Part shown: one piece after another, positions 6,528-24,236 of the stretch | How the letters are laid out: each line of letters begins with the position of its first letter | Position numbering within the stretch: position 1 is the first letter of the stretch | Virus record (IMG/VR): IMGVR_UViG_2861069343_000004 | Reading direction: 5' to 3' (one strand) | Source: a virus | Taxonomy: Duplodnaviria; Heunggongvirae; Uroviricota; Caudoviricetes | Length of the DNA: 24,504 nt | Made by a program: the position numbers and the translations under genes | Notes under the pieces: model-generated | Told to the model about the DNA's origin: nothing | What the model saw: only the letters and a program-made list of their open reading frames with translations | Database searches by the model: none

Positions 6528-6602
6528 GGGTCAGAAGCACAGCGGTTGTGCGTTCGGCTGTTAACCGAATGGTAGAAGGTTCGAATCCTTCCTGTCCCGC
6601 CA
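6528..6602 (+). tRNA. tRNA-Asn (anticodon GTT)-like gene, 75 nt including an encoded CCA
   Basis: Hand-folded cloverleaf. The D stem (GCAC/GTGC), anticodon stem (TTCGG/CCGAA) and T stem (GAAGG/CCTTC) are all perfect. The anticodon loop is CTGTTAA (E. coli tRNA-Asn has CUGUUAA) and the T loop is TTCGAAT. The acceptor stem GGGTCAG/CTGTCCC has one T-T mismatch at 4:69, and position 8 is A rather than U. Confidence 0.6.
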
Positions 6603-6867: not shown

Positions 6868-7179
6868 ATGGCTAAGCGTATGCAAGACAAAGAGAGCATT
6901 GCCGGGATGTCCTGGCTGGTTCTGCTGATCATTGCTGGTTGGGGCGGCCTTGTCCGATTCCTGATGGACGTAAAGCAGGGCAAAGCAAAATGGAGCTGGA
7001 TAAATGCTTTTGCGCAGATTGTGGTTTCGGCTTTTACCGGGGTTATTGGTGGGCTCATCAGCATTGAAGGTGGCCTGAGTATTTACATGATACTGGCCAC
7101 TGCCGGTATCAGTGGTGCTATGGGTTCCGTAGCGCTCACGTATTTCTGGGAACGAATCACCGGAGTGAAAGCACAATGA
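6868..7179 (+). CDS. Holin, three predicted transmembrane segments (103 aa), with a possible dual start (M1 / M5)
   Basis: Three hydrophobic segments, a charged C-terminus, GGAGG ribosome-binding site, and a stop overlapping the endolysin start (ATGA). The N-terminus MAKRM resembles a holin/antiholin dual-start motif. Confidence 0.8.
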   Translation: MAKRMQDKESIAGMSWLVLLIIAGWGGLVRFLMDVKQGKAKWSWINAFAQIVVSAFTGVIGGLISIEGGLSIYMILATAGISGAMGSVALTYFWERITGVKAQ

Positions 7180-7715
7180 AAGCAGACCAGACTATCGAGG
7201 GGATCCTCGGCAAAGAGGGCGGTTATGTCGATCATCCGTCGGATAAAGGCGGGCCGACCCGCTGGGGCATCACGCAGACCACAGCTCGAGCACATGGTTA
7301 CACCGGTGATATGAGAAACCTGCCCAGGGAAACAGCAAAGCAAATTCTGCTCAGCGATTACTGGACCGGCCCCCGATTCGATCAGGTGGCAAGTTTATCT
7401 ACGTTACTGGCAGATGAGCTTTGCGACACTGGCGTGAACATGGGGCCATCGGTTGCAATTAAGTTTTTCCAGCGCTGGCTCACTGCCCTTAACATGCGTG
7501 GGAAGTTGTATCCCGATCTGATCCCGGATGGCGCCATTGGCCCCCGAACCATCACTGCGCTTAAGGGATATCTTTCAGCCCGCGGGAAAGAGGGGGAACA
7601 GGTTCTGTTACGTGCGCTGAACTGCAGCCAGGGCGCCAGATACCTCGAACTGGCGGAGGGCCGCGAAGCCAACGAGGAGTTCCTCTACGGCTGGGTTAAG
7701 GAGCGCGTGCTATGA
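7176..7715 (+). CDS. Endolysin, GH108-like catalytic domain plus peptidoglycan-binding C-terminal domain (179 aa)
   Basis: N-terminal motif EGGYVDHPSDKGGPTRWGIT matches the GH108 lysozyme-family signature as I remember it. Placed between holin and spanins. Confidence 0.8.
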   Translation: MKADQTIEGILGKEGGYVDHPSDKGGPTRWGITQTTARAHGYTGDMRNLPRETAKQILLSDYWTGPRFDQVASLSTLLADELCDTGVNMGPSVAIKFFQRWLTALNMRGKLYPDLIPDGAIGPRTITALKGYLSARGKEGEQVLLRALNCSQGARYLELAEGREANEEFLYGWVKERVL

Positions 7716-8059
7716 AGATGATCATCTTCGCTTTGCTCGTGGTGGTGGCTGTGCTCGTTCTGTTACTGCTGCGCAAATATACCCGGCTGGAGTTCGTTGC
7801 CCATGCCAGCCTGCTGCTGAAAACGTGGTCTGTAAAGCTGGGGGCTATCGGTGCGCTGGTTGGCATGTGGGCGCAGTCGTTCCCGGATGCTGCGCTGCAC
7901 GCCTGGGCGATGCTGCCGCCGGATATCAAAAACATTCTGCCTCCAAACATTGTTGCGTTGATTAGCCCTGCGCTGGTGGTGCTGGCGGTGCTTTCGCAAT
8001 ACGTACGCCAGCCAGCATTGAAAGCTAAGGCCGAAGAACTGAAGGAGCCGCAGCAGTGA
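7712..8059 (+). CDS. Lysis-cassette membrane protein (LysA-like accessory protein) (115 aa)
   Basis: N-terminal transmembrane segment (IIFALLVVVAVLVLLLL) plus further hydrophobic segments. ATGA-coupled to the endolysin and GTGA-coupled to the i-spanin. Its position matches P2 lysA. Confidence 0.5.
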   Translation: MKMIIFALLVVVAVLVLLLLRKYTRLEFVAHASLLLKTWSVKLGAIGALVGMWAQSFPDAALHAWAMLPPDIKNILPPNIVALISPALVVLAVLSQYVRQPALKAKAEELKEPQQ

Positions 8060-8331
8060 GCTTCGAAATTATTTCTGGTCTGGTGGTCGTCATCCTGGGC
8101 GCTATAGCTGGCGCGTTCGGCATTGGTCATGCTCGCGGGACCAGTAAGGCGCAAGCCAAAGCCGATCAGCAGCGTACCGAAGAGAATGCCGCCGCCACCG
8201 TCGCCGCAGCAGAACGTAAGGCAGAAGTCACGAAGGAGGCAAGCGATGTACAGCAAACCGTTAGCCATATGCCTGATGACGATGTTGATCGGGAGCTGCG
8301 CGAAAAGTTTACCCGCCCCGGTAGTCGTTGA
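8056..8331 (+). CDS. i-spanin (Rz/LysB-like), GTG start (91 aa)
   Basis: N-terminal transmembrane segment followed by a charged, Ala/Gln/Glu-rich periplasmic region. AAGGAG ribosome-binding site. Contains the start of an out-of-frame lipoprotein gene. Confidence 0.7.
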   Translation: MSFEIISGLVVVILGAIAGAFGIGHARGTSKAQAKADQQRTEENAAATVAAAERKAEVTKEASDVQQTVSHMPDDDVDRELREKFTRPGSR

Positions 8332-8479
8332 TACGGCCTGCAGCTGGGTGCGGATCATCTACCTGACCGACCACGACATCGACGTGCTGGATAAGCAGAC
8401 CAAGCGCGACATCCTGGCGCATAACAAAGCTTGGCAGGCGAACTGCCAGAAACCAACAGCCGTCACCATTCCAAAATGA
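8246..8479 (+). CDS. o-spanin (Rz1/LysC-like) outer-membrane lipoprotein, overlapping the i-spanin in the +1 frame (77 aa)
   Basis: The ATG at 8246 is preceded by AGGAGG. Signal peptide with an LIGSC lipobox-like motif, and Pro-rich. It starts inside the i-spanin gene and extends beyond it. Confidence 0.7.
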   Translation: MYSKPLAICLMTMLIGSCAKSLPAPVVVDTACSWVRIIYLTDHDIDVLDKQTKRDILAHNKAWQANCQKPTAVTIPK

Positions 8480-8576
8480 TAAGCATGACAACTGGCATTC
8501 AATTATTGCCTATGATGATGCTCTTTGATTTAGTTGCTGATATAATCCCCCTAAATGATTTCAGGAGGGTTCTGCG

Positions 8577-8885
8577 TTGTCCGCGATAAACCACATAAAA
8601 AACCCGTTAACGATTATCGGTATTTTTGCGGGGATAGTAGAGGTCTCTGCAAACCTCGTATTACCTTTTCTTAATGATTCCCAACAAAGTACATATCTTT
8701 GGTTTTTAATGTTTTTCCCGGCAGGGCTTGTAATAGTGTTTTTTTTGACGCTGAATTTTAATCATGTTGCACTTTATGCTCCAAGCGATTATAGCAACGA
8801 TAAAGGATTCATGCAGGCCAATGGTAAAATGATCGGTAATGATGTCAAGGATACTGATGCAACGCAAGGCTTTGAATTAACATGA
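8577..8885 (+). CDS. Hypothetical small membrane protein, AT-rich moron gene 1 (102 aa, TTG start)
   Basis: ORF in a visibly AT-rich segment with AGGAGG 7 nt upstream of the TTG. Two hydrophobic segments. ATGA-coupled to the next gene. Confidence 0.45.
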   Translation: MSAINHIKNPLTIIGIFAGIVEVSANLVLPFLNDSQQSTYLWFLMFFPAGLVIVFFLTLNFNHVALYAPSDYSNDKGFMQANGKMIGNDVKDTDATQGFELT

Positions 8886-9148
8886 ATAAATTTATTTCAA
8901 GCACTTTTAATAATACTGTCGTCGAACTGGATGGCAACCATTTCGAAAAGTGCGTTTTTGAAAATTGCGAAATTGTATATAAAGGATTGCAGCCTTTTAA
9001 TTTAATTAATTGTAATTTTATTGCATGTAAATGGAAATTGGAAGGTGCAGCGTCAAACACAATTAACTTTTTAAAGGTTATGTATAAAGATATGGGTGAG
9101 TTTGGAAAGAAAATGGTAGAAGCCACTTTCGAAAACATAAAAAAATAG
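8882..9148 (+). CDS. Hypothetical small Cys-containing protein, AT-rich moron gene 2 (88 aa)
   Basis: ORF translationally coupled to the membrane protein. It has a repeated FENCEIVYK / LINCNFIACK pattern and is followed by a hairpin plus T-run. Confidence 0.5.
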   Translation: MNKFISSTFNNTVVELDGNHFEKCVFENCEIVYKGLQPFNLINCNFIACKWKLEGAASNTINFLKVMYKDMGEFGKKMVEATFENIKK

Positions 9149-9179
9149 TTTCATCCATTTACTTTCAGTTTATGAGATA

Positions 9180-9206
9180 CAGCCCTGCAATCGCGGGGCT
9201 TTTTTA
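9180..9206 (+). terminator. Terminator-like hairpin (AGCCC ... GGGCT) followed by TTTTTT
   Basis: Inverted repeat plus a T-run directly after the moron cassette. The stem boundaries are approximate. Confidence 0.45.
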
Positions 9207-9317
9207 TGCGCATCGCTCGCGCACATCAAAGAAAGTATTTCAGCGGTGAGCTTGGGCAAACCGTTAACTTTCGGCGGCTCTGCCGTGCGACAGGCTCACA
9301 TCTAAAAGGAAAACAGC

Positions 9318-9746
9318 ATGAAAAAGTTTTTAATCGACATGATTGATAAGGGCCTCTATTACGCGTTGCTTGCGGCGCTGGCTTTTGGGTCGGTCACAGG
9401 GCAAAGCAACGTCCTTAACGTGGCTGCTGCTGCGTTTTGGGTGGTGGTATTTCTTGGTGGGGTGGTTGGCATTATCACAATATTTCTCGCACATGGTGCA
9501 GAGCATATAACTGATGAGAAATCACGTCAGTCTGTGCTGGAGTCGCTGAGGAAGATTGTCCGGCGTAAGAACGTCATTGCTCGATGGTGGGGCTGGTTCT
9601 GCATGATGGCGACCATCGCTCTACTTGCCTACGGCGGCTGGGTATTTACCGCAGTGTGTTATGCGCTTTCATCCCTGTTTGTGCGGTTCTGCATTTCTCT
9701 GGCCAGAGACAAAGTAGAAAAACAGACGGTCGGCGTTTTAGCTTGA
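9318..9746 (+). CDS. Hypothetical integral membrane protein, about four transmembrane segments (142 aa)
   Basis: AAGGA ribosome-binding site and four long hydrophobic segments. Located between the moron cassette and the small terminase gene. Confidence 0.6.
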   Translation: MKKFLIDMIDKGLYYALLAALAFGSVTGQSNVLNVAAAAFWVVVFLGGVVGIITIFLAHGAEHITDEKSRQSVLESLRKIVRRKNVIARWWGWFCMMATIALLAYGGWVFTAVCYALSSLFVRFCISLARDKVEKQTVGVLA

Positions 9747-9804: not shown

Positions 9805-10581
9805 ATGGCAAAACCGGACTGGGAGGCCATCGAATCGGCATACCGGGCCGGAGTCCTTAGTCTCCGTGATATAGGCGATAAATACGGCGTTACTGAAGGG
9901 GCTATCAGGAAGAGGGCTAAAAAATTTGACTGGGTACGCAATAGCGGTACGCAGGTACGCAAAAATGGTACGCAAAGTGGTACGCAAAAGAGTAAGGCGC
10001 GTACCAGCGAAAAGCCTGCCAGCGCTGGCCGCACGCAAAAAAGTACGCAACCAAAAGCCGAGCCTCCACCAGATACGAAACCGATACGCGGGGTGCGTAC
10101 CGATCCGCCGACCAACCCATTCCAACCCGGCAACCAGCAGGCGTTAAAGCATGGTGGTTACGCCCGGCGTCTTCTGCTTAAAGATGAGGTCATTGAAGAC
10201 GCGAAAGCGTTGACACTCGAAGACGAATTATTTCGCCTTCGGGCTAACAACCTTGTCGCCGCAGAGAATATTGGCCGGTGGTTGACCAAGCTGGATGATG
10301 CTGAAGGGGACCAGGAAAGAAAGGTGTTGATGGAAAATATCAGCGCCGCCGAGAAGGCGATGATGCGCAATACCGTTCGTATTGAGTCTATCGTCGGCAC
10401 GCTTGCGACGGTAGGCAAAATATTTGCTGATACAGACTATCGCAAGGCTGCTACTGATAAGGTGTCGCTGGAGGCCGATCGTCTTCGCCGTGATGCAGGT
10501 ATTGATGATGGCAACGGAGAGCGTGACCTCAATGACTTCTACTCTGACATCCAAACCGACGCTGAATCCGGTCCTGCGTAG
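9805..10581 (+). CDS. Putative terminase small subunit (258 aa)
   Basis: N-terminal helix-turn-helix-like segment (LSLRDIGDKYGVTEGAIRKRAKKFDW), a low-complexity basic linker, and a position immediately upstream of, and overlapping, the large terminase gene. Confidence 0.6.
   Translation: MAKPDWEAIESAYRAGVLSLRDIGDKYGVTEGAIRKRAKKFDWVRNSGTQVRKNGTQSGTQKSKARTSEKPASAGRTQKSTQPKAEPPPDTKPIRGVRTDPPTNPFQPGNQQALKHGGYARRLLLKDEVIEDAKALTLEDELFRLRANNLVAAENIGRWLTKLDDAEGDQERKVLMENISAAEKAMMRNTVRIESIVGTLATVGKIFADTDYRKAATDKVSLEADRLRRDAGIDDGNGERDLNDFYSDIQTDAESGPA
9933..9986 (+). repeat. Array of five perfect GGTACGCA octamers at spacings of 13, 8, 13 and 12 nt, plus degenerate copies (GCACGCAA, GTACGCAA) at 10031-10050
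   Basis: Counted directly in the sequence. Lies inside the putative small terminase gene, where it encodes the GTQ-repeat linker. Confidence 0.8.
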
Positions 10582-20400: not shown

Positions 20401-21281
20401 TGGCGACTAACGATTTTAAACCCTTCGCTACTGGTAGCGGGGCAAACGTATTATCACAAGCTGATTATGACGCACTGTCGGCCAGAACAACTGGCTTTTT
20501 AAGTGGCAAAGCGTCTTCGGCCCAGGTCAACAAAGCTTTAAGGCAGGCATCAACTATTGCGGCGGTTGTGGCGCAGTTTATTTCTGATAACAGCGGCGAT
20601 GACACCCTTGATAACGGTAATTTACCTACCTTACTGGCTAGTCTCGAAAGCGCCCTCCTCAAGTCCTCCCCTGGGCGGTTACAGAATATCGTTAGCTTTA
20701 CCGCAAATGGGACCTACACCCCATCGCCAGGAACCAAACATGTAAAAGTTATTGTTACTGGCGGTGGTGGCGGTGGTGGTGGTTGTCAGGGAACTTCAGG
20801 ATCTGAATCAGTTTCAGGTGGCGGCGGCGGTGCTGGTGGTACGGCCATTGGTTATTTTGCTGTAACTGAATCCAGCTATGCAGTCACTGTAGGTGCTGGT
20901 GGTTCTGCTGGCGTTGGTGCTGTCCAGGGTGGAACAGGCGGAACCTCAATCATTAACGGCATTAGCGGATTGGGCGGAGATGGTGGTCAGAAATCAGGGA
21001 TCACTACGCTGGCTGGTGGGAAAGGCGGTATTTCTATTGGTGGCTCGGTTAACCTTCCCGGAGGTTACGGCACTGATGGGCAAAATGGCTCCCTGATTAT
21101 CCCCGGCAATGGCGGCTCGTCATATTGGGGCGGCGGTGGTCGTGGGGGCGCACGCGGGGGCGTGGCAGGGGATTGTTATGGTGCCGGTGGTGGTGGCGCA
21201 TATGATGCTGCCATGTCTGGCAACTCCTACAATGGCGGACAGGGGAAAGCAGGGATTGTATATATTGAGGAATATTCTTAA
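20400..21281 (+). CDS. Tail fibre protein with a glycine-rich low-complexity C-terminal region (293 aa)
   Basis: N-terminus [25 protein letters not shown] resembles conserved tail-fibre N-termini as I remember them. Long Gly runs (GGGGGGGGCQG ... GGGGAGG ...) are typical of fibre shafts. Confidence 0.65.
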   Translation: MATNDFKPFATGSGANVLSQADYDALSARTTGFLSGKASSAQVNKALRQASTIAAVVAQFISDNSGDDTLDNGNLPTLLASLESALLKSSPGRLQNIVSFTANGTYTPSPGTKHVKVIVTGGGGGGGGCQGTSGSESVSGGGGGAGGTAIGYFAVTESSYAVTVGAGGSAGVGAVQGGTGGTSIINGISGLGGDGGQKSGITTLAGGKGGISIGGSVNLPGGYGTDGQNGSLIIPGNGGSSYWGGGGRGGARGGVAGDCYGAGGGGAYDAAMSGNSYNGGQGKAGIVYIEEYS

Positions 21282-21451
21282 TGGTAAGCAAGTATGCAGT
21301 CCTGAAAGAATGCGTGGTAGAAAACATTATTGTTGCTGATGATAATTACTCTCCTGATGATTTCGAAGTCGTAAAATATAGCGACGAAACATTTTGCCAG
21401 CCAGGCATGTTGTACAATAAAGAGGATGGTTTATTTTATGATGATAAATAA
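21281..21451 (+). CDS. Hypothetical small protein (56 aa, MVSKYAVLKECVVENIIVADDNYSPDDFEVVKYSDETFCQPGMLYNKEDGLFYDDK)
   Basis: Hand-translated, AT-rich, TAATG-coupled to the tail-fibre gene. Resembles small proteins often found beside fibre genes (recollection only). Confidence 0.4.
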   Translation: MVSKYAVLKECVVENIIVADDNYSPDDFEVVKYSDETFCQPGMLYNKEDGLFYDDK

Positions 21452-21498
21452 TCATCAAGAATAAATAACATTATCTACATATCTACACATTACCAATC

Positions 21499-21521
21499 AA
21501 CCGGCTTATGCCGGTTTTTTA
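21499..21521 (+). terminator. Intrinsic terminator (stem AACCGGC/GCCGGTT, loop TTAT, TTTTTTA), 11 nt upstream of the tailspike ATG
   Basis: Perfect inverted repeat plus a T-run, read from the sequence. Confidence 0.6.
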
Positions 21522-21532
21522 TTGGGGCGACC

Positions 21533-23617
21533 ATGAGTGAATACGATACCGGCAATCCTGTGCCGTCTGCATCAATACCTGATGCATGGGATAATATGCA
21601 GACTATTGACAGGTTCGCTAATAGTAGTGATGAAACTATTACCACGCGTACAGGTAAGCAGTTAGACACTCTGCATGGCATCAATGTAAAGTCTGATAAC
21701 CAACTTAATGAACAACAAGATACCTTTGAATTATCTCAATCCGAAAGGGAATCCTCTTTCGAAGAAAAATCAAATGAATTTGAATCGCGCTTCTCCTCTC
21801 AGTTATCGGCGCAGGAATCAACATTTTCAGAATCTCAATCTGATAAAGAAAACCGCTTTCAGCAGTTCCTGAATACTTCAGGATACGTGTTCCTTGGCGA
21901 TTATCAGGACGGCCCATTCCAGTTTAGTGCCCGTAACCAGTACATCCGTTACGACAATGAGTATTACCGCCTGAATGCTGCTACTGACGTCGGCTTTACG
22001 ACCACCGGAACCGATGCGACCAGCTTTGCGAACGACGTTACTCACTTCGTTCTGATGGATGGTGATACGCTTCGCCAAGACCTGGGTTCAGGCGAAGGAG
22101 CAATGAAGGTTTACCGGAACGCCTCACCTCTGGCCAGAATCATTCGCTCCTCGATTTTTGAATACCTTACTGAAGCTGATCAGCAGGCGTTGCTCACAAT
22201 TCCTGGCGTTAATGTTATCGCTGACTACGCGTTAAAAAAAGCTATAGCTGATGGAGTGATGGTACTGGATATTCCGTGGAATGTCGGTGCGTTAAATTTC
22301 GGGCTTGACCCCGCAATGCTTCCATTAGGTTTTCAATTTATAGGGTGGGGTTGCCGACGCCCATATACAATTGATGACGATAACAGTTTTCTGAATTGCG
22401 GAGTCGTCATCCGCGTAGCAGCTGGTGCAAGTTTTCCATTTTATTCAACAGGCAGGCATGTATTCCGGGATATTGTTTTTGATGGCCGAGATAAAACAAC
22501 GTACCTTTTTTATTCGCCAAATACTGCAACCCAGTTCAACGGCACCCGACTTGAGGGGTGCGGATTTTATCGGTTTGCGATCGGGATTGGCTGGGCTTCA
22601 GGAGGAACAGCCAGGTACATCGGAACAATGAAAGCATATTTCTGCTCAATATCCGGAAACGGGGATGGAGTCAGGAATTTAATAGACTCCATGATGTTTG
22701 GTTGCACAATCAATGCTAATGATCGAGGAGTGGCCCTTACCGGTGGGGCAAACAATAACTTTTTTGGAGGATGCCGGAACGAATGGAACACCGGCGATAA
22801 CTGGTATGCGTACCAGTCGGTGGAGAACCAGATTTTCGGCGAACTGTGCGACAGGGCCGGAAGGGGAGGTGTGGTCGCCGGGGCGAAATCCTCATGGATT
22901 TTAAACGGCGTTAACGTCCGGCGCAGTGGTGCTAATCAACCCGTGGGTAATGACTATTCCGCAAACTTTATTATTATTGATGACGGTAAAATTGAACTCT
23001 CAGGGGTAAGAACTGGTGTCGGTGCGAATGACAGCGGTGACGGAGGGACAATCTCGCCATCCTACAACGTATCGGCTCTTGGCTCTGGCGGGGGGACCTT
23101 GCAGGTTTCCGGAAGTGACATGACTGGTTTTGTTACTTCAGCAATTAACCAGAAGGCGACCACGTTAAATAAGTCGATAACCGGCAACCTTGGTATGGAC
23201 GACGATGTAAATATTGGTATGACCCAGGTTGTTAAAGGCAGGCGAATTATTGGTTCACAGTCATCAGGTACGTTAGCAGGCTCTGCGGGCGCAACGTTAT
23301 CGCTGACCAAGACCAACATATTCCAGAATTCTTTCGATACATATATTACCCGTTCAATCCTAATTGAATGTCGAATTGGTAGCCAGTCATTTGGTGACGA
23401 TATTAAAATTCCCGTCAGATTCAGAAGGGAGAATCTTTATTATCTGGATATCCTGACCTCGGGAATTGTTGCCAGCTCTGCACGCATTGGGCTTTCAGGG
23501 ACTGGCGTAACGGTATCATTGTCCATTAACAGCTCAACCGGTCTGGTTACTGTTCAGTTGACAAATGTTGATGGTCTGGAAAGAACCGTTAATGTATCAA
23601 TGTTGCCCTCAATGTAG
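21533..23617 (+). CDS. Tailspike-like receptor-binding protein / putative polysaccharide depolymerase (694 aa)
   Basis: Large, lower-GC ORF after the tail fibre. The acidic Ser/Glu-rich N-terminal region is followed by repetitive Gly/Asn-rich segments (FGCTINANDRGVALTGGANNNFFGG, NFIIIDDGKIELSGVRTG) compatible with a beta-helix. The fold is inferred, not demonstrated. Confidence 0.6.
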   Translation: MSEYDTGNPVPSASIPDAWDNMQTIDRFANSSDETITTRTGKQLDTLHGINVKSDNQLNEQQDTFELSQSERESSFEEKSNEFESRFSSQLSAQESTFSESQSDKENRFQQFLNTSGYVFLGDYQDGPFQFSARNQYIRYDNEYYRLNAATDVGFTTTGTDATSFANDVTHFVLMDGDTLRQDLGSGEGAMKVYRNASPLARIIRSSIFEYLTEADQQALLTIPGVNVIADYALKKAIADGVMVLDIPWNVGALNFGLDPAMLPLGFQFIGWGCRRPYTIDDDNSFLNCGVVIRVAAGASFPFYSTGRHVFRDIVFDGRDKTTYLFYSPNTATQFNGTRLEGCGFYRFAIGIGWASGGTARYIGTMKAYFCSISGNGDGVRNLIDSMMFGCTINANDRGVALTGGANNNFFGGCRNEWNTGDNWYAYQSVENQIFGELCDRAGRGGVVAGAKSSWILNGVNVRRSGANQPVGNDYSANFIIIDDGKIELSGVRTGVGANDSGDGGTISPSYNVSALGSGGGTLQVSGSDMTGFVTSAINQKATTLNKSITGNLGMDDDVNIGMTQVVKGRRIIGSQSSGTLAGSAGATLSLTKTNIFQNSFDTYITRSILIECRIGSQSFGDDIKIPVRFRRENLYYLDILTSGIVASSARIGLSGTGVTVSLSINSSTGLVTVQLTNVDGLERTVNVSMLPSM

Positions 23618-23625
23618 GAGTGAAA

Positions 23626-23805
23626 ATGGAAGACGAAACAGAACTGACCGAACCGCCATTTGAAACCTGGTTCAGAGACGTGGTTGAACTGGTTAAAAAT
23701 GGCGGACATTCAATGGATATTGTTGCCTATAAGGGGGAATGGGTTGATTATTTTTCGGAAGGATTAACACCAGAAGATGCGTTTATAAAAAGAATGGCTC
23801 TTTAA
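23626..23805 (+). CDS. Hypothetical small acidic protein (59 aa; the track shows a GTG start at 23620)
   Basis: ATG preceded by AGGAG at 5 nt. Located directly after the tailspike stop. Confidence 0.45.
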   Translation: MEDETELTEPPFETWFRDVVELVKNGGHSMDIVAYKGEWVDYFSEGLTPEDAFIKRMAL

Positions 23806-23918
23806 ATAACCGACCGAAAATAAATGTCAGGGAGTAACGTATTGATAATTTTCGACAAAACGGCAGAGCATAGTGAAAACCGCCTGTGGATGATGGCCAA
23901 CATGGGGAGGATTCTGTA

Positions 23919-24236
23919 ATGGGCTTTCCATCACCCGCGACGGATTACACGGAACAGCGATTAACGGTTAACTCGATCTGCAATGTCGGTCCAAATACGC
24001 GCCTCTTCGAGCAATCTGGCGGTTACGTTGTGCTGGATGTCTCCCTGAAACCAAAGCAGGCCAGTCAGGTTCTGATCCAGCACGGCGGCGGGACGGAGCT
24101 TGCCACGCTGAGAGGAAGGTCGCTGATTACCGAAGATGGTGAAGCGATCGAGGGCGAGGCCCTGGACGATGTTACTGTCATCGGTGTAGTGACGTTTACT
24201 ATCTGCGATGTGCGCCAGGACAATGCGGTTGTTTAG
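23919..24236 (+). CDS. UmuD'-like protein (HumD-like): lacks the N-terminal arm and the catalytic Ser (106 aa)
   Basis: Begins MGFPSPATDYTEQRLTVN (E. coli UmuD has CGFPSPAADYVEQRIDLN) and has a C-terminal beta-strand region resembling UmuD. The position aligning with the UmuD GDSM nucleophile motif reads SGGYV. GGAGG ribosome-binding site 9 nt upstream. Confidence 0.7.
   Translation: MGFPSPATDYTEQRLTVNSICNVGPNTRLFEQSGGYVVLDVSLKPKQASQVLIQHGGGTELATLRGRSLITEDGEAIEGEALDDVTVIGVVTFTICDVRQDNAVV

Follow-up and report, generated by a model that had tools for sequence, protein, structure and literature searches.

A self-contained, horizontally mobile and AT-rich two-gene moron occupies positions 8480-9210 of the DNA analysed here, a stretch of 24,504 nucleotides from a member of the Caudoviricetes (IMG/VR record IMGVR_UViG_2861069343_000004; the whole stretch is referred to below as the window), between the spanin genes and a terminator of the phage backbone. 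Its two open reading frames, ORF A and ORF B, encode a predicted inner-membrane two-helix hairpin and a protein confidently modelled as a mini pentapeptide-repeat beta-helix, and together they are one functional unit, the split version of an anchor-plus-head design that is mostly found as a single, longer protein. Phage morons that pair a membrane effector with a sensor are of a known kind; the hairpin module, its breadth, and its split or fused link to a pentapeptide-repeat head appear to be undescribed in the literature that we searched. The most plausible role that we infer for the pair is superinfection exclusion or abortive infection.

An AT-rich cassette in a variable slot behind the spanin genes

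An earlier reading of the window, made by a model from the letters alone (the original prediction), had noted an abrupt shift to AT-rich composition across 8480-9210, and the base composition bore this out. GC content falls from 0.55-0.60 at 7500-8400 to 0.31-0.39 at 8500-9200 and returns to about 0.5 thereafter. The 670 bp from 8480 to 9149 have a GC content of 0.348, against a mean of 0.517 (standard deviation 0.044) over all 670-bp segments of the 24.5 kb, and the global minimum among these segments starts at 8496. The same bias recurs in related copies of the cassette: in 12 of 13 copies, among them all those of enterobacterial, Vibrio, marine or Pseudomonas origin, the GC content of the cassette was lower than that of both flanks (0.42 versus 0.61 and 0.54 in one example), the sole exception being a Steroidobacter copy, which is lower than its left flank only. 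That the cassette is AT-richer than its flanks across copies fits repeated horizontal acquisition.

Megablast comparisons with relatives delimited the slot. The left flank, with the lysis genes, is common to relatives up to approximately 8446-8457 and the right flank, on the packaging side, from 9273 or 9748 onward, and the segment between these shared flanks is not common to those relatives. With 99% identity from 9273 on, Klebsiella phage GZ7 has no cassette and an empty slot, and at the same place Escherichia phage vB_EcoS-733R5 and Klebsiella phage KPP5665-2 carry different small ORFs. The relatives thus hold other small genes or nothing between shared flanks, in agreement with the moron that had been placed between the spanin and packaging genes and with the variable cargo that was to be looked for there. 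Megablast of the cassette against phage records gave no match outside the right flank. The element is a moron-type accessory cassette at a variable post-spanin slot, which we take to be the slot of bor on the lambda map.

In lambdoid prophages the pair always lies directly 3' of the spanin genes, in late-gene orientation. In other genomes it adjoins genes for Tex, a cytosine methylase, NdpA or a tailspike, neighbourhoods that show no tie to lysis genes. The record of the 'Elizabethkingia' phage EKP1 (OM284015.1) carries the cassette at 75% and 70% amino acid (aa) identity, with the same promoter block and terminator; this record has lambdoid lysis genes and a flank GC content of 47-53%, looks enterobacterial, and its host label may deserve a check.

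Both reading frames are protein-coding genes under purifying selection

The original prediction had described two translationally coupled ORFs, of 102 aa with a TTG start and of 88 aa, and this part of it stands unchanged. Calls by the Prokaryotic Genome Annotation Pipeline (PGAP) are identical, and the two genes share an ATGA overlap in which the ATG of ORF B (8882-8884) is placed on the TGA of ORF A (8883-8885). In comparisons with three orthologous cassettes, the ratio of nonsynonymous to synonymous substitution rates (dN/dS) was 0.10-0.15 for both genes wherever dS could be estimated (0.10 for ORF A); in the remaining comparisons synonymous sites were saturated and the proportion of nonsynonymous differences (pN) was 0.16-0.19. 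These low values of dN/dS and pN indicate that A and B are genuine protein-coding genes under purifying selection. An antisense ORF at 8845-9138 was not supported as a gene. The length of a PHROG profile also raised the option that the pair is the decayed fragment of a 303-aa gene, which we rejected because the short form and B are conserved, widespread and under purifying selection.

No known family had been recognised by eye for either protein. This held for Pfam, NCBIfam and PADLOC, none of which contains a family for A or B at curated thresholds, but not for PHROGs, where both proteins fall in families of unknown function.

ORF A belongs to a widespread family of membrane hairpins

ORF A has a short N-terminus, a first transmembrane helix at about residues 10-31, a 9-residue loop, a second transmembrane helix at about residues 41-61, the motif L66-Y-A-P-S-D71 and a disordered tail of 30 residues. 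The AlphaFold2 model agrees with the membrane protein originally proposed, with a helical hairpin of helices 10-31 and 34-61 (predicted local distance difference test, pLDDT, of about 90) and a disordered tail. Counts of lysine plus arginine are 1.67 before the first helix, 0.16 in the loop and 1.27 after the second helix, a distribution that points to cytoplasmic ends; A is therefore predicted to be an inner-membrane two-helix hairpin with N-in/C-in topology. Across 51 homologues N9, P10, L11, F17, A18, E22, F47, L51, F55, F56, L59 and L66-D71 are invariant, so that neither the glutamate embedded in the membrane (E22) nor the juxtamembrane cytoplasmic motif LYAPSD varies. The PHROG match of A (phrog_26238, E=6e-26) covers only the first 80 of 303 profile positions, and a search of the A profile against PDB sequences returned no match, HalA included.

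An exhaustive profile search recovered approximately 2750 representative clusters of the A family at E<=1e-3, and 679 at <=1e-30. They are distributed over Proteobacteria, Bacteroidota, Acidobacteriota, Planctomycetota, Verrucomicrobiota, Bacillota, Chloroflexia and Patescibacteria, and the family also occurs in phages, with long forms in Pseudomonas phage F116 (gp41, between portal and head genes) and in Rhizobium phage RHEph21 (Autographiviridae). The majority of the best 150 clusters are 250-350 aa in length, and such long forms continue behind the hairpin with an acidic linker and then a variable C-terminal head. Long forms mostly stand alone and have no conserved partner; their neighbours are mixed, and genes of defence or mobility (AAA_21, AAA_15, ResIII, BrxC, integrases) make up a minority of them.

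In the commonest head, aligned over 42 long forms, one Asp and one Lys are invariant within an F-D-G...(V/I)-E-(V/I)-K pattern that has the consensus E-V-K, and the D...E-x-K motif was found by regular expression in 116 of 235 family members; going by this motif alone, the sequence suggests a PD-(D/E)xK nuclease. Other heads consist of an 'IWLG' domain, winged-helix-like domains or TPR-like repeats. Neither Pfam nor NCBIfam has a curated family for the long forms, and a racemase match of the long-form profile among PDB sequences was dismissed as spurious. Mean identity among 42 long representatives was 72% in the hairpin versus 22% in the head, a contrast that is favoured by the selection of these representatives on hairpin-profile score. 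Such a difference does not suit a hairpin that serves as a passive anchor.

ORF B is modelled as a mini pentapeptide-repeat protein

In the structural model of ORF B, residues 2-53 form a beta-helix of nine short strands and are followed by a two-helix C-terminal hairpin (56-70 and 72-87). The protein has tandem five-residue repeats that fold in the model into a right-handed beta-helix, and its top fold and profile matches are pentapeptide-repeat proteins, so that we regard it as a confidently modelled mini pentapeptide-repeat protein of the cytoplasm. Its profile scores all lie below curated cut-offs, with 18.8 bits against PF13599 (cut-off 38 bits; E=1.7e-3), 17 bits against the NCBIfam Qnr model NF033086 (cut-off 240 bits) and 21.5 bits against the HalA model NF051894 (cut-off 250 bits).

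The regular cysteines that had led to the description of B as a Cys-patterned small protein are present, but they belong to a beta-helix like that of AlbG and Qnr. They recur every five residues, each two residues before a hydrophobic centre (C24/F26, C29/I31, C44/F46, C49/W51), and the cysteines of AlbG and Qnr are placed in the same way (RFEDCTFRQCNF..., FQGCRFIGCNF). These shared repeat positions speak for a structural role and make a metal site unlikely; the pattern is probably a structural feature of the repeat. Zinc binding was considered and set aside, as near-invariance is limited to C29 and C44 and each of the four cysteines stands two residues before a repeat centre, as in AlbG and Qnr.

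The pair is a split version of an anchor-plus-head design

The coupled pair recurs in EKP1, in prophages of Citrobacter, E. coli and Klebsiella, and in contigs of Vibrio, Pseudomonas, Poseidonibacter, Steroidobacter and marine metagenomes, with overlapping stop and start codons in every copy examined. To relate the presence of B to the form of A, we used related loci gathered from the A alignment. Among 80 genome loci, seven short A forms were followed by B, a further one lies at a contig end, one is a split nuclease-like form and one has an unrelated overlapping partner, and B was found beside none of approximately 68 long forms. Among 80 IMG/VR loci, B followed all short forms with downstream room (40/40, after correction of ORF-start artefacts) and stood beside no long form (0/38). 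The pooled linkage between the short form and B has a Fisher p of about 1e-33, a value that is indicative only, as many of the loci are near-identical copies. Moreover, on one viral contig (L180) a single 194-aa protein consists of an A hairpin, a linker and a B domain, and matches both PHROG families.

The linkage of B to short forms, together with this A-B fusion, identifies B as the detachable equivalent of a fused head. A and B are thus a split version of the anchor-plus-head design and one functional unit, an architecture in which we have high confidence; contact between A and B, and a pore, are conjecture. Two further arrangements of the hairpin were seen in passing. In a Kaiserbacteria locus (L101, 3986-4817) a 111-aa short hairpin form overlaps a 176-aa ORF that is unrelated to B, and in a Prolixibacteraceae locus (L097, 3989-4853) the D...E-x-K head is encoded by an ORF of its own behind a 95-aa hairpin ORF; this arrangement may be a frameshift or a true split.

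A candidate phage-exclusion device at the inner membrane

The overall explanation that we favour, and that we consider evenly poised between right and wrong, is that the A+B unit of this moron is an inner-membrane phage-exclusion device expressed by the prophage. From sequence, a role of the pair in defence or exclusion of some kind seems somewhat probable. A and B would act as one membrane-tethered unit, with B in the place of the variable C-terminal head. B would be the sensor and recognise a component of the incoming phage, and the hairpin of A would be the effector, acting on the membrane via its intramembrane glutamate and the LYAPSD hinge, probably after self-assembly into an oligomer that perturbs the membrane or conducts ions; infection would be aborted, or blocked at entry. 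We put forward this specific sensor-pore step only tentatively. Equally speculative is a broader proposal, in which immune devices of one-protein or split form, across phyla and phages, would make up a large unrecognised family that has the A hairpin as its constant effector: a self-assembling, ion-conducting or membrane-breaching module built around the intramembrane glutamate and gated by interchangeable sensor heads (nuclease-, winged-helix- or TPR-like, or pentapeptide-repeat).

There are precedents for the individual parts of such a device. Conflict systems have been described as combining a constant module with rapidly varying ones (PMC7159879), a list of sensor repeats in bacterial NLR-like defence proteins includes pentapeptide repeats (10.1101/2022.07.19.500537), and SNIPE (PMC13190303) and the HalA channel (PMC13434031) are membrane-bound defence effectors.

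Several observations count against an exclusion device of this kind. PADLOC-DB v2.0 gave no match for A, for B or for eight of nine long forms scanned, the ninth having a weak MkoB match (E=1e-3) in its winged-helix region. The D...E-x-K head of the long forms has no Pfam or PDB sequence match. The neighbourhoods of long forms are heterogeneous, with defence or mobile genes in the minority and housekeeping genes among the rest. The loci on which the co-occurrence of A and B is based include many near-identical copies. Finally, long forms are carried by F116 and by RHEph21. The Autographiviridae, to which the latter belongs, are virulent T7-like phages, for which an abortive-infection effector is not an obvious cargo.

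Carriage by RHEph21 suits superinfection exclusion better, and in this respect it favours the main rival explanation, which we consider rather unlikely overall. This is an interception like that by SNIPE or T4 Imm, in which the hairpin would only place the head at the inner-membrane site of DNA entry and the head would act, the nuclease-like heads by cutting DNA and B by trapping, as a mimic of DNA or as a protein binder, a DNA-binding or tape-measure protein that has been ejected, with no cell death. SNIPE is a membrane-anchored nuclease that cleaves phage DNA during injection (PMC13190303), the commonest head of the A family has the D...E-x-K motif, and other heads resemble winged-helix DNA binders. 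The conservation of the hairpin fits interception poorly: 72% identity across phyla, against 22% in the heads, is not expected of a passive localiser, the N-terminal parts of SNIPE are poorly conserved in sequence (PMC13190303), and an invariant glutamate inside the membrane points to activity of the hairpin itself. Furthermore, with only nine short strands B is far smaller than the 180-220-aa chains of Qnr, MfpA and AlbG.

The remaining explanations concern the life cycle of the prophage or its host. We consider it improbable that the pair is a lysis-timing accessory, with A as a class II holin- or antiholin-like protein regulated by B. A LydA-type holin, a DUF7940 holin-like protein, an endolysin and Rz/Rz1 are already encoded by the prophage, the cassette is missing from the close relative GZ7, and by its composition the cassette is foreign to the operon of lysis genes. 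Both the pair and the long forms also occur far from lysis genes, on bacterial chromosomes and in the portal-head interval of F116, and the A family is mostly fused to large heads, although the constant position behind the spanin genes of lambdoid prophages, in late-gene orientation, and the features of A, a small protein that has two transmembrane helices, termini predicted on the cytoplasmic side and a charged tail there, would suit such a function. A toxin-immunity pair, as the original prediction had offered, has lost ground as well. A toxin-antitoxin or addiction pair that stabilises the prophage, with A as a small membrane toxin and B as its cytoplasmic antidote, would account for two small, translationally coupled genes with one membrane and one soluble product. 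Its classical logic needs separable partners, whereas the hairpin is normally fused to a partner domain and an A-B fusion exists; with B located downstream of A, and no match of either protein to a known toxin or antitoxin family in Pfam, NCBIfam or PADLOC, we consider it very improbable. Lysogenic conversion, with B as a topoisomerase protector of the Qnr/MfpA/AlbG type or the pair as an envelope factor like lambda Bor, is scarcely credible. Its appeal lies in the weak similarity of B to Qnr and AlbG, and in the slot, which presumably corresponds to that of bor. B has 88 aa against 180-220 aa and stays far below the Qnr cut-off, the periplasmic side of A consists only of the 9-residue loop, neither protein has a lipoprotein box or a signal peptide, and A and B are both dissimilar to Bor.

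If the pair does protect against phages, the favoured exclusion device would represent a very widespread new membrane module in bacterial and prophage immunity, with its approximately 2750 clusters, and one conserved membrane hairpin would be coupled to swappable recognition domains. The cassette, at about 0.7 kb, with its own predicted promoter and with anchor and head naturally separate, would make sensor and effector separable and genetically tractable in E. coli.

Relation to known systems

The closest relatives of B in design are the pentapeptide-repeat proteins (PF00805/PF13599 clan; AlbG/McbG, Qnr, MfpA and the SV2 luminal domain), with which it shares five-residue repeats, a hydrophobic centre with a small residue or Cys two positions earlier, and a predicted beta-helix of short strands. 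Unlike these proteins, B fits only nine short strands and a C-terminal two-helix hairpin into its 88 aa, fails to reach the thresholds of Pfam and NCBIfam, and occurs obligately with a membrane hairpin, as its partner or in a fusion; neither its length nor its score is that of the long beta-helices of Qnr, MfpA and AlbG. The DNA-gated ion channel HalA of the Hailong system (NF051894; PDB 9nyi) has one region to which B shows the weak sub-threshold similarity given above, but HalA is one protein with an additional crown domain. No gene for the HalB nucleotidyltransferase lies beside the pair, whose neighbours are Rz1 and a four-helix membrane protein.

SNIPE consists of a single transmembrane helix, DUF4041 and a GIY-YIG nuclease, and the long A forms, with a hairpin and a D...E-x-K domain, look analogous to it. 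No match to DUF4041 or GIY-YIG was found in A, B or 39 long forms, and, unlike SNIPE, A has two strongly conserved helices and the head in the window is a pentapeptide-repeat protein and no nuclease. The A family also resembles abortive-infection (Abi) transmembrane effectors in joining a constant membrane module to an interchangeable cytoplasmic domain, with no similarity to any transmembrane effector family in PADLOC or Pfam and no gene for a signalling enzyme nearby. The size and the inferred topology of A fit a class II holin, but the phage has its own holin. With the post-lysis morons of the lambda bor type, the cassette has in common that it is an extra unit with a promoter-like element, a downstream terminator, deviant composition and patchy presence in the gap between spanin and packaging genes; it differs from bor in having no sequence relation to Bor, in lying on the same strand as the late genes, in consisting of two coupled genes and in circulating outside phages too.

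Expression signals and the junction with the phage backbone

The left-end block of the cassette, delimited by an alignment of five cassettes (Table 1), follows the consensus GCAT.ACA...GGCATTC...TGCC..TGAT.ATGCTCT in enterobacterial copies. The block contains an inverted repeat, which is here shrunk to GGCA (8494-8497) and TGCC (8507-8510); the stems of relatives have 6 bp, and that of Mixta differs in sequence yet pairs. A promoter belonging to the cassette is predicted from a conserved extended -10 element, which has no good -35 hexamer and was therefore missed by a generic promoter scan that demands one. The element is kept 36-44 nt 5' of the start codon in EKP1, Citrobacter and Mangrovibacter (TGATATAAT, TGTTATAAT or TGATATACT).

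The terminator-like hairpin that had been assigned to the end of the cassette is real, with an 8-bp stem that has six G-C pairs and is followed by TTTTTT (-19.6 kcal/mol; z = -3.7 versus shuffles), and it would end the cassette transcript. It is a feature of the backbone, though: GZ7, a phage without the cassette, shares the terminator together with ~110 bp behind it, so that the cassette sits 5' of this terminator and brings none of its own. The stretch 9182-9317, comprising the terminator, a long inverted repeat, TAAAAGGAAA and a start codon, is a conserved backbone junction element outside the cassette. The consensus fold of the repeat has 31 pairs, six of them with compensatory changes on both sides, and in lambdoid loci at least nine different genes follow the element, which is also present in GZ7. 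The slot and its conserved junction element constitute a reusable insertion site in lambdoid prophages of clinical E. coli lineages. A search of Rfam with 9182-9317 gave no match. A GcvB match at 9050-9207, across the 3' end of B and the terminator, scored 31.1 bits in Rfam against a gathering score of 42 and was judged an artefact of AT-richness and the terminator. At two related loci (L114 and L121) the junction element lies ~1 kb upstream of the A gene.

Prophage context of the window

The window is a lambdoid prophage of E. coli, integrated beside yecE, and is 100% identical to NZ_CP029369. Positions 8400-9320 were found at >=99% identity in 35 of 5426 complete E. coli genomes, as a single chromosomal copy each time. 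In one E. coli genome (NZ_CP060969.1) an IS1A is inserted within the region homologous to 8400-9320. The features of the cassette, the junction and the neighbouring genes are collected in Table 1.

Table 1. Cassette elements and neighbouring prophage features, in coordinates of the window
Feature	Position	Strand	Basis or remarks
Antiterminator Q gene			Upstream of cassette
tRNA-Asn	6528-6602		Between Q and holin genes; annotation of identical RefSeq record
LydA-type holin	6868-7179		Upstream of cassette
GH108 endolysin	7176-7715		Upstream of cassette
DUF7940 holin-like protein	7712-8059		Upstream of cassette
Rz	8056-8331		Upstream of cassette
Rz1	8246-8479		Upstream of cassette
Cassette left-end block	8481-8523	+	Alignment of five cassettes
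Predicted extended -10 promoter element, TGaTATAAT	8538-8546	+	Read from sequence
Shine-Dalgarno sequence, AGGAGG	8563-8568	+	8 nt 5' of the TTG of ORF A; GGAGG conserved in alignment
ORF A	8577-8885	+	TTG start, 102 aa; PGAP WP_024623185.1, hypothetical protein
ORF B	8882-9148	+	ATG start, 88 aa; PGAP WP_046659662.1, hypothetical protein
Intrinsic terminator	9181-9206	+	Stem 9181-9200 and T-run; fold energy
Long inverted repeat, 54 nt	9246-9299	+	GTGAGCTTG...CAGGCTCAC, then TAAAAGGAAA and next start codon
142-aa multi-pass membrane protein (four helices)	9318-9746		Between cassette and small terminase
Small terminase	9805-10581		Downstream of cassette, then large terminase

Some observations on these neighbours may be of use for annotation. 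At the position of the tRNA gene, GZ7 has both a tRNA-Asn and a tRNA-Arg. The 142-aa membrane protein matches phrog_162, whose label 'endolysin' is probably a misnomer, and scores slightly below the NF038378 threshold; in E. coli relatives, the corresponding proteins encoded at this position have a precomputed assignment to the Pfam family PF28015 'LysA'. A deletion of ~300 bp truncates this gene in some genomes of the sequence type ST361, where the cassette is intact. The small-terminase ORF encodes 258 aa, of which residues 1-257 align with the small-terminase family phrog_370 (E=2e-100), while the RefSeq annotation comprises only the C-terminal 162 aa (10093-10581), as a hypothetical protein, and its annotated start is probably too far downstream. 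A second, milder region of low GC content (0.43-0.49) extends over 21000-24000 and includes the gene for a 694-aa tail-fibre protein (21533-23617; phrog_6518), 3' of which lies a UmuD-like gene (23886-24236).

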